From the IMG/VR virus record IMGVR_UViG_3300029798_000001: a DNA stretch of 64,000 bases. The stretch is one strand, 5' to 3'. Source of the stretch: a virus. Taxonomy: Duplodnaviria > Caudoviricetes. Shown here in pieces: positions 22,268-64,000 of this stretch. The notes under the pieces are model-generated. The model ran no database searches, was not told the origin of the DNA, and saw only the letters and a list, made by a program, of their open reading frames with translations. The position numbers were made by a program, and so were the translations under genes. Numbering within the stretch: the first letter of the stretch is position 1; the number at the start of each line of letters is the position of its first letter.

Positions 22268-22516
22268 ATGCAAAAGAAAACTCGTAGTTTATTAGAAGAA
22301 TTAGACTCAATGTATATTGAGCGCGATCAGCGCCATATTATTGAAAACCGCGCCGCCAATATTATAGCCAGTGCTATACGCTTGCTAGAGCAGATCGACG
22401 AAAATTACAGCACCGACGATGCCCAGAATTTACAGCGTAAATTACTAAACGCCATTAATCATCGCGATCCCGGTAAGTTTACACGCACGGTAAGGAAAAC
22501 TGATGCAAATTCATGA
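22268..22516 (+). CDS. Late hypothetical protein
   Basis: ORF track; upstream CTAAATA inside a TTTAGTGC/GCACTAAA hairpin. Confidence 0.65.
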   Translation: MQKKTRSLLEELDSMYIERDQRHIIENRAANIIASAIRLLEQIDENYSTDDAQNLQRKLLNAINHRDPGKFTRTVRKTDANS

Positions 22517-23321
22517 AATAACTCTCAGAGAAGCAGAGTGGGAGCCGCTTGATCCTAAAAAGATTATGGCCACAGCTAGACCAACAAAATTTAACTATGG
22601 GACACCACCTATAGCACCGAGAGTTGGTACCGAACTACCAACTGATCCCGCTACATCTAAAGAAAAACAAGATGACCTAGCAACCAAACAAGCTCAATAC
22701 CAGCAACAATCGGCAGATGCGGTAAACGCTATGAAAACAAAATCAACACCACAAGTAGGCCAATCTCTCCCACAAGTAAAACAACCCACCCCGTCTAACG
22801 GAGCAGGCGCATTTGGGCAAATGGCTCAGCAGTTGCAGAAACCTGCTACTCCTTCGGGACCAACACAGTCTAGCACTCAAGGAACAATTACCCCAACTGC
22901 AACAGGAGTAGTACATACTGCTAGTGAACGAAATCCTAATCCACGCACAGAACCCATAGGTGCTCAGCAAAAGTGGGACATTGAATTTAGAAAATTACAA
23001 AACCAATATCCAGGCCGTACCCCTCAACAATATCAACAAGCAATGTTACAAAGAGTAGGAACAGCTCGTCCTAATGGCACACCTGCATCACAAGCTGCAC
23101 CCGCACCGCAGGTCGTTGCAACAGCACAGCCCGGGACTACTATAAAATCTGCTCCTCGTCCAGTGCAACCAGCACCTGCCGCAACAACACAATTCCCACC
23201 GATTACACTGGGTACTGGGTCCAAAGCACAAGTATATGTTAATAAAGGTAGAGGCTATATTGATAGCAAAACAGGCAAACCGATGCCCCCGAGTATTATT
23301 CAGGCCATGGGTATAAAATGA
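22503..23321 (+). CDS. Gln/Pro/Thr-rich hypothetical protein (MQIHEI N-terminus)
   Basis: ORF track; low-complexity composition. Confidence 0.65.
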   Translation: MQIHEITLREAEWEPLDPKKIMATARPTKFNYGTPPIAPRVGTELPTDPATSKEKQDDLATKQAQYQQQSADAVNAMKTKSTPQVGQSLPQVKQPTPSNGAGAFGQMAQQLQKPATPSGPTQSSTQGTITPTATGVVHTASERNPNPRTEPIGAQQKWDIEFRKLQNQYPGRTPQQYQQAMLQRVGTARPNGTPASQAAPAPQVVATAQPGTTIKSAPRPVQPAPAATTQFPPITLGTGSKAQVYVNKGRGYIDSKTGKPMPPSIIQAMGIK

Positions 23322-25243
23322 AAATCTTTGAAGGCGGTAATGTATTTAAGAACAGCGACGGCCAAGCCTTAACACAGCGCATTAATCAAATTGATGTCAA
23401 ACCCACTCTCGCCTGGCTTGAAGAAATGCTTCCTGGGTTAGATTTACAGAACAACACACTTGGATCAACTGGAATTAAAGATACCAGCGGTGATTTAGAT
23501 ATTGCGGTAGATGCTAATCGAGTTAGTAAAGAACAATTAGAATATAGACTTAAATCCTGGGCAGTTGCTAACAAATTTAAACCCGAAGACTATGTTCGTA
23601 AGTCCGGCAGTGCCGTACATTTTAAAACTCCTATAGACGGCCGCCCAGATCGTGGCTATGTGCAAACAGATTTTATGTTTATGAAAGATGTTCCGTGGTC
23701 AAAGTTTGTACTAGGTGCAATGCCAGTGGACAGCAAATATAAAGGTCGCGAGCGCAATGTATTAATGAATAGTATCGCTAAAAGTTTAGGATACAAACTA
23801 AATCAAAATGCTGGTATTGCCGATCGTGCCAAAGACACATTAATTTCCAATGATCCAGATGCAGTGGCTAAACTGTTATTGAACAAAACGGCCACAAGAC
23901 AAGACTTAGCAAGTGTAGAATCGATATTACAGGCACTTAGCACCGATCCTAAGCGCGATGCAAAATTAGCCGACTTTAAACAACACATGGAACGCGAAGG
24001 CCTACCGTTTATGGAAAGCACAGATTCCGATACTTATATAGAATATAGTGATGTAAACTTCCTTGCCCGTCTCCGCGATCGCATTGTCAATCAAGGCATG
24101 CAGGTTATTGTAGAAGCCGAAGTACAAGGCGGACGAGCCAAAGGCATTGAACACTTAGAAGATTATGTATTCCGTAATGGTAGTGCCGGTATCAAGAAGG
24201 CATTAGATATTGTAAAACATACTTCCGCTGATACAGGAAAAACCACTACAGTTAAATGGGATGGTAAGCCAGCATTAGTCTTTGGCCGAGATGCCAATGG
24301 TACATTTATATTAACTGATGTATCTGGGTTTACTGCCAAAGGTTACAATGGATTGTTTACCAGCCCTAACCAAGTTACACGACATTTAGCCGCAAGAGAT
24401 GCCGATGCAGCGGCACAAGGTAAGGCTGCCACCCGGGTTCAAGATCTTTCTCCTATATATAATAAGTTATGGGATATGTTAGATGCTGCTGTTCCTCCTA
24501 ACTACCGTGGGTTTGTTCAAGGCGATCTATTATACATGAATACACCGCCGCTGGAATCTGGAAATTATGTGTTTACACCCAATGCTATAGAATATAAAAT
24601 CCCAGCTAATAGCGATATAGGACAGCGTATAGGTGCTAGTGAGGTTGGCATTGCTATGCACACAAAATATGCAGAACCAGGAGCACCAAAAGAACCACTT
24701 GGCAATGTTCAGTTTAAACGGGTACCTGGATTACTATTATTAGAACCTGTGTATGCTAAAGAAAATGTTAAACCAGAAACACAGCTGGTTAAGCAACTAC
24801 AAGGTCTTTATAGATCTCAAGGTGCAGCTATTGATCAACTATTCAATCCCAACGATCTTCGTGCATTACAAATTACTGATTTACCTAAATTATGTGTGGA
24901 TTATATTAATAGTCGAGTAGGCACCGGATTTGATAATTTGTTAGCACAATTTGGGCCGTGGTTACAACAACGAGTTACTCCTAAGAAATTTAAAAATATT
25001 GTAGAATATCTACAAAGTCCCCGTAGTAATTTAGCAGGAATGGCCGCAGCATTTACTGCTTGGGAGCTGTTACATGATATTAAAATGGATATTTTAGGAC
25101 AATTAGACCTACAACATCCAGGGCAAGAAGGCTGGGTAATGGCCACTCCTGGCGGTATGGCCAAGGCTGTTAACCGGTTAGCTGGCGGATTTACTGCAGC
25201 AAATCGTCAAATAAACAACCCAGAACCGGTAGCTAACTCCTAA
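23318..25243 (+). CDS. Fusion of a Pol-beta-superfamily nucleotidyltransferase and a ligase-like (KxDG) domain
   Basis: N-terminal LGSTG...SGDLD...VQTDF; C-terminal KWDG, VQGDLLY, EGWV, AKAV. Confidence 0.6.
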   Translation: MKIFEGGNVFKNSDGQALTQRINQIDVKPTLAWLEEMLPGLDLQNNTLGSTGIKDTSGDLDIAVDANRVSKEQLEYRLKSWAVANKFKPEDYVRKSGSAVHFKTPIDGRPDRGYVQTDFMFMKDVPWSKFVLGAMPVDSKYKGRERNVLMNSIAKSLGYKLNQNAGIADRAKDTLISNDPDAVAKLLLNKTATRQDLASVESILQALSTDPKRDAKLADFKQHMEREGLPFMESTDSDTYIEYSDVNFLARLRDRIVNQGMQVIVEAEVQGGRAKGIEHLEDYVFRNGSAGIKKALDIVKHTSADTGKTTTVKWDGKPALVFGRDANGTFILTDVSGFTAKGYNGLFTSPNQVTRHLAARDADAAAQGKAATRVQDLSPIYNKLWDMLDAAVPPNYRGFVQGDLLYMNTPPLESGNYVFTPNAIEYKIPANSDIGQRIGASEVGIAMHTKYAEPGAPKEPLGNVQFKRVPGLLLLEPVYAKENVKPETQLVKQLQGLYRSQGAAIDQLFNPNDLRALQITDLPKLCVDYINSRVGTGFDNLLAQFGPWLQQRVTPKKFKNIVEYLQSPRSNLAGMAAAFTAWELLHDIKMDILGQLDLQHPGQEGWVMATPGGMAKAVNRLAGGFTAANRQINNPEPVANS

Positions 25244-28496: not shown

Positions 28497-29375
28497 ATGG
28501 ACGACCGCATCACAATCAACAAACTTGAATTTTATATTACTAATGTATGTAATTTAACCTGCTCTAACTGTAACAGATATAATAACTATAAATTTGCTGG
28601 TTGGCAAAATTATGATGATTATGCTGAAATTATTCAACGGTGGTCTAAAAAAATCAATGTAGTTAAAGCAATGATCCTAGGCGGCGAGCCGCTGCTTAAT
28701 CCCAGTATTAACAAATGGATCGAGGGTATTCGCACCACATGGCCCGATGGATACTCGCCAGAAATTATTACCAATGGTACTCGTCTTGATTTAGTTGACG
28801 GACTATACGATACTTGCCGTAAACATGGTTCCTGGGTAGCAGTAAGCGTACATCGAGACGCTGATATTGCACCTCTTACTGCTCGAATTAGAAATTTTTT
28901 AACACCACCAATACAAGAAGGTCCAGCCCTGCTGTCAAACACAAATTCAGATTATCAATTCATCGATTCCAACTTTGTTCAGGTTCATATATGGAAAAAT
29001 TTTGATTTTCTACAAAATAATATCATTGAGCGACCAGATGGTACTCGCACACTATGGAAAAGTGATCCGGCGGTAGCACATGCTATTTGCCCCCAAGTTC
29101 TGCATAAAAATTATCATTTTATCAATGGTAAAATTTATAAATGCGGACCGGCACCATTGATGGCCGAATTCGATCAACAATATCCGTTCGATATTTCAGA
29201 CGAAGATCGAGACATAATCCATACAGATCCCGGATTGAGTATTGACGAGTTTGATGAGCATGGCGAAGAATTTTTCAAAAACATCGATAATCCAATTGCG
29301 CATTGTAAATTTTGCCCAGACACATTTGGATGGCATCCAATTGAATTTAGCAATATTAAGCCAAATAAAATTTGA
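28497..29375 (+). CDS. Radical SAM protein with C-terminal Cys cluster
   Basis: CNLTCSNC, LGGEPLL, IITNG; C-terminal CP...KIYKC...CKFC. Confidence 0.88.
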   Translation: MDDRITINKLEFYITNVCNLTCSNCNRYNNYKFAGWQNYDDYAEIIQRWSKKINVVKAMILGGEPLLNPSINKWIEGIRTTWPDGYSPEIITNGTRLDLVDGLYDTCRKHGSWVAVSVHRDADIAPLTARIRNFLTPPIQEGPALLSNTNSDYQFIDSNFVQVHIWKNFDFLQNNIIERPDGTRTLWKSDPAVAHAICPQVLHKNYHFINGKIYKCGPAPLMAEFDQQYPFDISDEDRDIIHTDPGLSIDEFDEHGEEFFKNIDNPIAHCKFCPDTFGWHPIEFSNIKPNKI

Positions 29376-44749: not shown

Positions 44750-46129
44750 ATGAACACCATAGACTTTACCGGTGAACAATTTGATGAGATAAAAGTGGCC
44801 GCCGATTGGATACGAGACTTAGAGAGTAGTGATAGTCGGTTACACAAGGAATCAGTGATTGAGAAGGCCTTACTGGCCAGTAAGCTAGGTTCCTCAAACG
44901 CTCAGTGTTTCTTGTTTAACTGCTACCAAGCCTACAACCCCTATTATGTCTTTGGTGTTAAAAAAGTTCCAGAGACTGATGGTCTAATAGATAAACCCAA
45001 TCCATGGCCAAAGTTCTGGGCCATGCTCGAAGGTCTCCGTACTCGTGGTCTCACCGGTCACAATGCCAAGACCGCAATTGAGTTTATGTCAGAGCAGTTT
45101 GATTCGGTGGAGTGGAACAACCTATGCCGTAGAGTTATTATTAAAGATCTACGCTGTGGCATCAGTGAAAAAACTTTAAACAAGGTTCTTGGCAACACTG
45201 AATGGCGGATTCCTGTGTTTACTTGTCAGTTGGCTACAGACTCAGAAAAGCATGTGGCTAAAATGACCGGAATCAAACGCCTAGAACAGAAGTTAGATGG
45301 TGTGCGTGTGCTGGCGGTAGTAACCAAGACCGCAGTGAATCTATACAGTCGCAATGGTAAGCCGTTTGATAACTTTCCGCAGATTGTAGAATCACTCGAA
45401 GATATTAAAAATAAGTTTGCTAAACTATTTCAAAGAAATCCAATGGGATTTGTGTTAGATGGCGAAATCATTGGTGAAAGTTTTCAAGCCTTAATGAAAC
45501 AGGCCCAACGTAAGACGGATGTGCAAACAGATGGTATGACTTATAGCGTGTTTGATGTTATTCCATTGGCAGACTTTGAACGTGGATTTTGGAATGCCCA
45601 ACAATATAAACGCCTGGCTATCCTAGAAGAATATCGTGCGGTGTTTGAAATGACCAACTCGGTTCGTATCATGGACGGTATTGAAGTTGATTTAGACACA
45701 GCTGAAGGACACGATATACTTAAACGCTACTCTGCAGATGCAGTAGCAGACGGTTTTGAGGGAATCATGATAAAATCACTCGACGCACCGTATGAATGCC
45801 GTCGTAGCACATTCTGGATGAAGCTCAAGCCAACCATCACTGTAGACTTAAATATTGTTGGTTTTGAAGAAGGCACTGGTCGCAATGTAGGCCGCTTGGG
45901 TGCTATAATTTGTGAAGGAGATGACAATGGTCGTCGTATTAATGTTAATGTGGGTAGTGGCCTTTCCGATGCTAATCGTGATGAATATTGGAGTGCCCGA
46001 GATCAGTTACTTGGCGATGTTATTGAAGTCGAAGCAGACGCAGTGACACAAAATCAAGATGGAACTTACAGTTTGAGATTCCCTCGCTTTGTTCGTTTTC
46101 GTGGATTTGAACCTGGAGAGAAATTATGA
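44750..46129 (+). CDS. gp30: ATP-dependent DNA ligase
   Basis: EQKLDGVR, YSRNGK, LDGEI, VFDVI, EGIMIK, WMKLKP, LRFPRF. Confidence 0.92.
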   Translation: MNTIDFTGEQFDEIKVAADWIRDLESSDSRLHKESVIEKALLASKLGSSNAQCFLFNCYQAYNPYYVFGVKKVPETDGLIDKPNPWPKFWAMLEGLRTRGLTGHNAKTAIEFMSEQFDSVEWNNLCRRVIIKDLRCGISEKTLNKVLGNTEWRIPVFTCQLATDSEKHVAKMTGIKRLEQKLDGVRVLAVVTKTAVNLYSRNGKPFDNFPQIVESLEDIKNKFAKLFQRNPMGFVLDGEIIGESFQALMKQAQRKTDVQTDGMTYSVFDVIPLADFERGFWNAQQYKRLAILEEYRAVFEMTNSVRIMDGIEVDLDTAEGHDILKRYSADAVADGFEGIMIKSLDAPYECRRSTFWMKLKPTITVDLNIVGFEEGTGRNVGRLGAIICEGDDNGRRINVNVGSGLSDANRDEYWSARDQLLGDVIEVEADAVTQNQDGTYSLRFPRFVRFRGFEPGEKL

Positions 46130-54415: not shown

Positions 54416-56044
<1,629 letters not shown>

Positions 56045-62977: not shown

Positions 62978-63002
62978 CACATAAGTCTTTTTGTTATACA
63001 AT
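62974..63002 (+). promoter_or_regulatory. Sigma70 promoter; uvdE probably leaderless
   Basis: TTGACA-17-TACAAT; ATG 6 nt downstream. Confidence 0.75.
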
Positions 63003-63008
63003 AGCAGT

Positions 63009-64000
63009 ATGACTACAACTATTATTCCTCGCCTGGGATTTGCGTGTAAATGGATTGATAATTCCGCTCAGGTTAATGGCATTAAACCCAAAGACGATGC
63101 TAAACGATACAACACCGGCACAACTACAGTATCTTGGTTAAATAGACAGTCGAGAGAAATAGCGGAGCAGAAGTTATGGGATTTAATGGTACAAAATATA
63201 GAGTCAACAAGACTCTTGGTGGAGCGGGTCAGTGAACTCGACCCACATCTTCGCATGGTCCGTCTTAGCAGTGACATTCTTCCTTGCTATACCCACCCTG
63301 ATTACTCTGGCTACTGGATGGATGCTGGTGTTGTTTCATACGCGGCCAAGGCGTTTGAACGAGTTGGTGCTCATGCTCGTTTACACGGTGTTAGGTTGTC
63401 TTTTCATCCTGGTCAGTTTACTGTGCTTGCGAGCAGTAATCCTGGAATAGTAGATCGATCAATAGAGGAGTTTGAATATCATGCGAATATGGCGGAGTGG
63501 ATGGGTTACGGACAAACCTTTCAGGACCTCAAAATTAATGTCCACATCGCAGGTAGAGAAGGTCCAGCCGGTATCCGCAGTGCGTACGGAAGATTATCCC
63601 CCGTCGCCCGCAGTTGTCTTACAATTGAAAACGAAGAAAACGCTTGGGGGTTAAATGATTGTCTTACCATTTCTGATATTGTTCCTATTGTGCTCGATAT
63701 CCACCATAATTGGATCCGCGAAGGAGAATATATCCAACCCGGGGATGACCGTGTTAGAAGAGTTATTGATAGTTGGCGGGGTGTTCGTCCTACTATGCAT
63801 TATAGTGTCAGCAGGGAAGATATACTTGTCGGACATGATCCCTCTGTCGCACCTGCACATGCGGCACTTTTGGTAGAAGGTTACAAGAAACAGAAACTAA
63901 GAGCACATTCCGACTTCTATTGGAATTGTGCAACCAACGAGTGGGCATTGACATTCTTGGATGACTTTGACATTATGGCAGAGAGTAAGGGCAAGAACCT
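63009..64000 (+). CDS. uvsE: UV-damage endonuclease UvdE/UvsE; runs off the window end and is absent from the ORF track
   Basis: Hand translation gives RLGFACK..., MVRLSSDILP, RLSFHPGQFTVLAS, INVHIAG, LTIENEE, VLDIHHNW and AESKGKN. Confidence 0.92.
   Translation, partial: MTTTIIPRLGFACKWIDNSAQVNGIKPKDDAKRYNTGTTTVSWLNRQSREIAEQKLWDLMVQNIESTRLLVERVSELDPHLRMVRLSSDILPCYTHPDYSGYWMDAGVVSYAAKAFERVGAHARLHGVRLSFHPGQFTVLASSNPGIVDRSIEEFEYHANMAEWMGYGQTFQDLKINVHIAGREGPAGIRSAYGRLSPVARSCLTIENEENAWGLNDCLTISDIVPIVLDIHHNWIREGEYIQPGDDRVRRVIDSWRGVRPTMHYSVSREDILVGHDPSVAPAHAALLVEGYKKQKLRAHSDFYWNCATNEWALTFLDDFDIMAESKGKN

Follow-up and report, generated by a model that had tools for sequence, protein, structure and literature searches.

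A putative minimal family-X polymerase fused to a DUF6267 ligase-like domain in a giant uncultured phage

Two nucleotidyltransferase folds in a single phage protein

The 64,000-nucleotide stretch of DNA analysed here (hereafter the window) derives from a giant uncultured phage of the Caudoviricetes (IMG/VR record IMGVR_UViG_3300029798_000001) and carries on its plus strand, as are all features of the window for which a start and an end are given below, an uninterrupted open reading frame (ORF) at 23318-25243 that runs from ATG to TAA. The encoded protein of 641 amino acids (P0001) joins a minimal family-X polymerase (PolX) domain to a ligase-like domain of the DUF6267 family; minus-strand ORFs within the same interval are short. 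Both folds, the conservation of their catalytic residues and the evolutionary coupling of the two domains were established directly in this analysis. We infer, with somewhat more confidence than doubt, that the gene product is a self-contained repair enzyme that fills gaps and seals nicks and for which DNA is favoured over RNA as the substrate, and this inference extends to its activities, cofactor and order of steps. A reading made from the sequence alone had proposed that two unrelated nucleotidyltransferase folds, one of the Pol-beta type and the other of the covalent-lysine ligase and capping type, are fused in this protein, and per-domain models and structural scans confirm both. The motif strings that it quoted are all present, namely GSTG...SGDLD (residues 49-61), VQTDF (containing D118), KWDG (313-316), QGDLLY (containing D403), EGWV (604-607) and AKAV (containing K616).

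The N-terminal domain (residues 1-230; 23318..24007) comprises a PolX-like palm (residues ~1-131) and thumb (~132-201) followed by two extra helices, and its AlphaFold model has a predicted local distance difference test score (pLDDT) of 92.1. A Foldseek-independent structural scan of 48,161 PDB representatives, carried out for each domain, placed PolX enzymes at ranks 1-9 and 12 for the N-terminal domain, aligned over 149-175 residues. Among these top matches are Pol beta, Leishmania Pol beta, TdT, Pol lambda, Thermus PolX, African swine fever virus (ASFV) PolX, Pol mu and Deinococcus PolX. The remaining enzymes of the Pol-beta superfamily, namely terminal uridylyltransferases (TUTases), Trf4, GLD-2, MenT, CD-NTases, OAS, poly(A) polymerase (PAP), CCA-adding enzymes and aminoglycoside nucleotidyltransferases, all scored lower, nearly all of them aligning with the palm only. 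Since the top ranks are occupied by PolX over both palm and thumb, the domain is, as judged from its model, a minimal family-X DNA polymerase with putative activity rather than a generic tailing or signalling nucleotidyltransferase; the earlier suggestion of an enzyme making signalling nucleotides does not fit this result.

The palm begins at residue 1, with most structural alignments starting at Pol beta residue 139, and it carries an hG[GS] motif (G49-S50), D59-x-D61 and a third carboxylate (D118) on the expected elements of the model, with the PolX-specific thumb (the nascent base-pair binding subdomain) directly behind it. The Pol-beta-type G-S ... S-G-D-L-D motif (residues 49-61; 23462..23500) contains the metal-binding residues D59 and D61, and strand 114-122 of the model holds the third catalytic aspartate (23669..23671). 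Where the thumb helix (143-156 of the model) starts, the alignment consensus S-x-Y-K-G-x-x-R-N (residues 139-147; 23732..23758) resembles, without gaps, the 'YFTGS...N' segment through which PolX enzymes contact the nascent base pair. Across 41 homologs of the N-terminal domain (29-73% identity), G52 and D61 are invariant, and conservation is at least 90% for G49, S57, G58, D59, D118 and R146. A profile search of PDB sequences with this domain retrieved no PolX.

A poorly conserved linker (residues 231-275; 24008..24142), marked by low pLDDT and gappy alignment columns, leads to the C-terminal domain (residues 276-636; 24143..25225), which has a covalent-lysine ligase-type nucleotidyltransferase fold without an OB domain (pLDDT of the model, 90.5). 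DUF6267 (PF19782), which matches the C-terminal half with E 2e-29, is the sole Pfam family detected on the ORF, and PHROGs returned only an unnamed family. In the structural scan, every one of the top 31 PDB representatives is a member of the covalent nucleotidyltransferase superfamily, in the order RNA ligases, DNA ligases and capping enzymes. The structural aligner gave values of 8.1 for the nucleotidyltransferase domain of Naegleria Rnl5, 7.4 for REL1, 7.3 for Trl1, 7.0 for T4 Rnl1, 6.8 for human Lig1 and 6.7 for T4 Rnl2; LigA is not among the structural neighbours. Foldseek against the PDB gave nothing at E <= 1e-3, its weak list consisting almost entirely of ligases, and the fold call derives from the structural aligner together with the conservation of the motifs. 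The domain has no match to curated ligase models (PF01068, PF09414 and others), hhalign of its profile against the DNA ligase encoded elsewhere in the window gave nothing (E 0.41), and when solved structures were searched by sequence, neither the single protein nor the profiles of the two domains returned more than chance matches. In a viral structure library, the C-terminal domain matches cyanophage and 'uncultured Caudovirales' proteins with E down to 1e-24, several of which are named for an attached cytidylyltransferase-like domain.

The conserved residues of the C-terminal domain fall on successive strands of its model in the order I-III-IIIa-IV-V, and we assigned the motifs from this order and their spacing. 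Motif I (K-W-D-G, residues 313-316; 24254..24265), at the end of model strand 56-59, has the K-x-D-G form characteristic of covalent nucleotidyltransferases, with an invariant lysine, K313, that is predicted to be adenylylated. Motif III (G-D-L-L-Y, residues 402-406; 24521..24535) lies on model strand 144-152 and includes the invariant D403, the invariant H448 (24659..24661) occupies the motif IIIa position on model strand 187-197, and motifs IV (E-G-W-V, 604-607) and V (K-A-V-N-R, 616-620) follow at 25127..25177 on model strands 351-356 and 359-363. Three features are peculiar when compared with known ligases: motif V has the form K-x-V-x-R; a family-specific H-x-E-D (residues 279-282; 24152..24163) precedes motif I, with E281 and D282 invariant and H279 present in 41 of 42 homologs; and an all-helical insert of ~110 residues (488-599; 24779..25114; model helices 234-345), which structural alignments skip, separates motif IIIa from motif IV. 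This insert, unusual for the superfamily, may be a nucleic-acid-binding module. In the alignment of 42 homologs (30-58% identity), E281, D282, K313, D315, G316, G323, D334, R360, D403, H448, K589, E604, G605, V607, V618 and R620 are invariant, and H279, R324 and K616 are nearly so (K616 at least 90%). The motif residues, whose lack of conservation the sequence-only reading had named as grounds for abandoning it, are thus conserved in the homologs of both domains.

Domain coupling and gene neighbourhood

Proteins of this kind are abundant, since more than 4,000 metagenome clusters at 90% identity match the ORF protein, and an exhaustive search matched it to 1,426 representatives at 50% identity. 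Hidden Markov models built for each half and scanned over the query plus 150 representatives revealed 59 fusions in the order N-then-C and seven in the order C-then-N, together with 44 proteins containing only the C-terminal and 41 containing only the N-terminal domain. Two of the sampled 'solo' genes proved to be adjacent, overlapping split pairs, one consisting of a 253-residue N gene with a 532-residue DUF6267 gene behind it and the other of a 248-residue N homolog (hhalign E 1e-83) with a 376-residue C gene behind it. The occurrence of both fusion orders, together with split adjacency, argues strongly that the two activities cooperate, and since each half also occurs alone, they are separable units. 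Amongst isolated phages, tblastn matched residues ~275-629 to a protein that is annotated as hypothetical in T4-like cyanophages and in Stenotrophomonas phage DLP6, and residues 6-185 to a 277-residue protein of the jumbo Agrobacterium phage Atu_ph07. In Atu_ph07 and in Phosso, this PolX-like gene (hhalign E 6e-30) lies behind a different, KLDG-type ligase-like gene that occupies the ligase slot. The mini-PolX domain was also observed at the end of, or inside, metagenomic multidomain proteins of 860-1160 residues (P0245, P0250 and P0220), in the company of Tad3 (a Thoeris inhibitor) and DUF5661, of ART-PolyVal and CTP_transf_like, or of NT5C and Amidoligase_2; these relatives resemble 'polyvalent' conflict proteins.

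The genes leading up to the fusion ORF in the window encode, in order, a primase (19867), a DnaB-type helicase (20807), an 82-residue protein (22268..22516) and a 272-residue protein. The module is likewise located just downstream of primase and DnaB helicase genes in Atu_ph07, Phosso and PA5oct, and it adjoins replication genes in every lineage examined. The start codon of the fusion ORF overlaps with the stop codon of the 272-residue gene (ATGA), suggesting that the two are translationally coupled; the upstream protein is of low complexity, rich in Q, P, T and A, and matches nothing. The 82-residue gene (phrog_11854) encodes a small helical protein and is a conserved upstream companion of the module in other phages, with homologs in TARA contigs (L004-L007), Atu_ph07, Phosso and PA5oct, in the same position in the last two, and with 43% identity (E 3e-21) to the product of a gene upstream of a split N gene. 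The position of the 272-residue gene is taken in Atu_ph07 by a 239-residue gene (L001:2228-2947), flanked by the small gene and the ligase-like gene, which matches the Pfam family 'large polyvalent protein-associated domain 3' (LPD3) only weakly and below the threshold (E 0.004).

In PA5oct, the syntenic position holds gp256 (EST35_0228; L011:7119-8459), a divergent DUF6267-type protein of 446 residues that was detected by structure in the viral structure library (E 2e-6) and by hhalign across motifs IV-V (E 8e-6); no PolX-like partner was found among its neighbours, and gp255 was rejected as a homolog of the N-terminal domain. The syntenic structural proteins gp257 and gp258, detected by mass spectrometry, have no detectable homology to either domain or to the 272-residue protein. 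The 507-residue gene upstream of DUF6267 in cyanophage S-CAM4 was also rejected as an N-domain homolog, and a 187-residue gene downstream of DUF6267 in L008 shows no similarity to the S-CAM4 'cytidylyltransferase'. Elsewhere, the window encodes a ribonucleotide reductase and a UvsW-type helicase, and we also observed a radical-SAM protein near the module (28497-29375) and a GroEL-type chaperonin (54425-56044; phrog_5725, E 2e-175).

Substrate and function of the fusion protein

According to the scheme that we favour, the PolX module, through D59, D61 and D118, would add one or a few nucleotides to the 3'-OH at gaps or breaks, while the DUF6267 domain, as a divergent ATP-type polynucleotide ligase, would adenylylate itself at K313, transfer the AMP to the 5'-phosphate and then seal the resulting nick. 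The substrate would be the phage's own DNA at strand breaks or at intermediates of excision repair, and ribonucleotides might be used for the filling. The sequence-only reading had envisaged an end-healing and sealing or tailing machine, with RNA repair as its main suggestion; addition of nucleotides followed by sealing survives as the best interpretation, PolX replaces the generic tailing nucleotidyltransferase, and RNA repair becomes a rival because the PolX fold moves the favoured substrate from RNA to DNA. DNA is favoured because the polymerase half is PolX-like through the thumb, because the gene is located in a replication module in every lineage examined, because the phage carries a nick-making repair endonuclease and because fusions of PolX with ligase (PgVPolX; PMC5537341) and of polymerase with ligase (LigD) are established DNA-repair devices. 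The endonuclease in question is a UvdE UV-damage endonuclease (62991-63998, running off the end of the window; Pfam E 2e-37), which as a nick-making enzyme would create substrates for an enzyme that fills and seals.

Several observations weigh against this interpretation. The N-terminal domain lacks the 8-kDa (deoxyribose phosphate (dRP)-lyase) and helix-hairpin-helix fingers subdomains of PolX, and residues 1-260 have no Pfam or NCBIfam match at E <= 10 save one chance match, no Pfam PolX model being hit. The C-terminal domain is without the OB domain of DNA ligases, as the model stops ~25 residues past motif V and the internal helical insert is its sole extra module. Its nearest structural neighbours are RNA ligases (Rnl5, REL1, Trl1, Rnl2 and Rnl1), by a lead over DNA ligases of less than one Z unit. 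Our literature search found no paper naming DUF6267 and no DUF6267 protein with a measured activity. The KLDG-type protein in the ligase slot of Atu_ph07 and Phosso has a weak Pfam RNA_ligase match and the UniProt name 'RNA ligase', and the fusion of relatives to HIGH-type nucleotidyltransferase, HAD phosphatase, ART-PolyVal and Tad3 domains is not explained by simple DNA repair. Finally, the phage already has a DNA ligase, a canonical ATP-dependent enzyme encoded at 44750-46129 (phrog_114, E 2e-88). The coexistence of this ligase with the DUF6267 fusion makes it unlikely that the two ligase-type enzymes are redundant, and the canonical enzyme would serve replication.

The structural proximity of the C-terminal domain to RNA ligases that lack OB domains and the KLDG-type 'RNA ligase' adjoining the N-domain homolog of Atu_ph07 and Phosso both speak for an alternative in which the Pol-beta-type domain restores one or two nucleotides at the 3' end of a cleaved RNA, as RlaP does, and the ligase-like domain reseals it, for example in a tRNA cut by host anticodon nucleases. 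Pairs of RlaP, which adds one or two nucleoside monophosphates to damaged RNA (PMC7824862; PMC12776372), with an RNA ligase are an established theme in jumbo phages, and the HAD-type phosphatase domains (NT5C, DUF2608) of some relatives could heal 3'-phosphate ends. The fusion shares with pairs of RlaP and Rnl-type ligases the coupling of a Pol-beta-superfamily nucleotidyltransferase to a covalent-lysine ligase and the logic of restoring before ligating. However, RlaP systems act on RNA, whereas the N-terminal domain has no match to RlaP (PF10127) even at E <= 10 and is PolX-like including the thumb, with TUTases, PAP and CCA-adding enzymes ranking lower and nearly all of them over the palm only. 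Moreover, no polynucleotide kinase or RtcB was seen adjoining the gene, the 64-kb window contains no tRNA genes, and the gene is placed with replication genes in all lineages examined. RNA repair therefore strikes us as unlikely, although it is the strongest of the competing explanations. LigD adds ribonucleotides by preference and preferentially seals nicks bearing a 3'-ribonucleotide, which offers a possible functional analogy. A purely conjectural hybrid, in which DNA is patched with ribonucleotides and sealed by a ligase that prefers a 3'-ribonucleotide, like LigD or Rnl5, would reconcile the hints of DNA with those of RNA.

It is highly improbable, in our estimation, that the two domains, together with the often linked HIGH-type (NMNAT-like) nucleotidyltransferase, make or remodel an NAD-related or signal nucleotide as an anti-defence measure. 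This explanation would account for the location of DUF6267 near, or its fusion to, CTP_transf_like domains in five isolated phages and several metagenomic proteins, and for N-domain relatives fused to Tad3, ART-PolyVal, NT5C and amidoligase domains, but the characterised full-domain matches of both fold families all act on polynucleotide ends, and tblastn detected no HIGH-type partner within the 64 kb of the window.

Whether the protein acts on DNA or on RNA, it might be packaged in the capsid, perhaps be cleaved by the head protease at an h-x-E site and be injected with the DNA so as to act at once on damaged ends or on host defence. The sequence-only reading had proposed packaging through the N-terminal MKIFE, which is instead made up of Met-Lys and the start of a domain-edge motif. 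This motif reads E-G-G-N-V-F-K in the fusion protein (residues 5-11; 23330..23350), preceded by a hydrophobic residue and any residue, and the longer form h-x-E-G-G-N-h-F-K is found in 55 of 59 N-terminal copies of the domain and is kept in all 29 internal copies. T4-type targeting peptides are about 10 residues long, and the commonest leader before the motif, at five residues, is too short for one. As conservation behind the motif Glu is no lower than in front of it, the motif fits an element of structure or function better than a targeting peptide or cleavage site. Nor are [LI]xE sites enriched in the protein (5 observed against 3.9 +/- 1.8 in shuffles). Published virion proteomics, a check that the sequence-only reading had called for, offers no support through PA5oct: EST35_0228 and the homolog of the small upstream gene carry no mass-spectrometry flag, whereas six neighbouring genes do, and the 'virion structural protein' label of phrog_11854 is likewise without a mass-spectrometry flag in the authors' own PA5oct record. 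The locus tags of cyanophage S-PM2 that we sought are not in the supplementary tables of cyanophage proteomics. On the other side, h-x-E stands directly before the domain in almost all homologs, proteins that mass spectrometry detected in virions are encoded in among the genes of the syntenic block of PA5oct, and N-domain relatives lie inside giants that look like polyvalent proteins (with ART-PolyVal, Tad3, DUF5661, NT5C and amidoligase domains), a class predicted to be injected (PMC5512222). Taken together, we regard carriage in the virion as improbable.

Precedents and the place of DUF6267 in cyanophages

The principle of the fusion is not new, having precedents in PgVPolX and in bacterial LigD. 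PgVPolX of Phaeocystis globosa virus 16T, which performs gap filling and ligation in vitro in base-excision repair (PMC5537341), likewise combines an N-terminal Pol-beta-type polymerase and a C-terminal ligase in one polypeptide. However, PgVPolX has a full Pol-beta-like core with dRP and apurinic/apyrimidinic (AP)-lyase activity and a ligase domain homologous to those of NAD+-dependent DNA ligases, whereas the phage protein has palm and thumb only and an OB-less DUF6267 fold unrelated in sequence; its host is a giant eukaryotic virus, whereas the fusion described here belongs to a bacteriophage. ASFV PolX shares with the N-terminal domain a reduced architecture without the 8-kDa and fingers subdomains, but in ASFV the polymerase and the ligase are separate proteins, the ligase is a canonical ATP-dependent enzyme with an OB domain, and the ASFV enzymes have no detectable sequence similarity to the phage domain. 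The nick-sealing RNA ligase Rnl5 (Naegleria NgrRnl and Deinococcus DraRnl) has an N-terminal OB-like domain where DUF6267 has the helical insert and H-x-E-D instead, with no similarity between the two at the sequence level. LigD, an enzyme of bacterial non-homologous end joining (NHEJ), unites a polymerase and an ATP-dependent ligase, in some cases also a phosphoesterase, in a single protein that repairs breaks and gaps (PMC3656841, PMC4770248). What is new here is a PolX cut down to an ASFV-like minimum and joined to a ligase family that has no characterised member and an unusual topology.

In T4-like cyanophages, DUF6267 corresponds to T4-GC 71, and we located it in S-CAM4 (L002:4028-5185), P-TIM40 (L013:2983-4173), S-PM2 (L014:3019-4798) and S-SZBM1 (L015:2983-4176). 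In all four genomes, the gene is found one or two small genes downstream of gp41 and MazG (and after uvsX in those where it is annotated), and a CTP_transf_like (HIGH-type, NMNAT-like) nucleotidyltransferase follows it or, in S-PM2, is fused to it. The C-terminal half of DUF6267 and CTP_transf_like are contained in one annotated gene of S-PM2, and a 591-residue S-PM2 fusion is present in the viral structure library. This recurrent pairing was observed at L013:4174-5247, L014:3626-4798, L015:4176-5264 and L016:4673-6498 and in proteins P0138, P0141, P0150 and P0161. In DLP6, the DUF6267 gene is two genes before a 'cytidylyltransferase' and its other neighbours differ, while in several metagenomic proteins a CTP_transf_like domain is fused after the N-then-C arrangement.

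No PF01068, PF01653 or PF09414 gene was found in the four T4-like cyanophages, whereas ATP-dependent ligases were evident in the controls DLP6 and PA5oct; DUF6267 is the only gene of the ligase superfamily detected in these four genomes. Clokie et al. wrote of gp30 homologs that they 'are not found in cyanomyoviruses', leaving distant homologs possible (PMC2984593). DUF6267 is a candidate for this missing ligase of the gp30 type, the conventional explanation being that the host ligase is used. We put forward, tentatively and in the knowledge that it is more doubtful than probable, a broader proposal in which DUF6267 is an unrecognised and very abundant family of phage polynucleotide ligases that includes the missing DNA-sealing enzyme of T4-like cyanophages, and that forms a modular repair toolkit with mini-PolX in the fusion described here and with the HIGH-type NMNAT-like nucleotidyltransferase in cyanophages, possibly involving an unusual cofactor supply or ribonucleotide patches. 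Recognition of the ligase fold and intact catalytic motifs of DUF6267 opens this long-standing gap in the replication and repair of cyanophages to direct tests.

The fusion is predicted to be a compact repair enzyme with two activities, and its architecture may interest both enzymologists and tool developers. DUF6267 itself is a family without a literature, yet it is very abundant and is conserved beside the replicative helicase of marine cyanomyoviruses.

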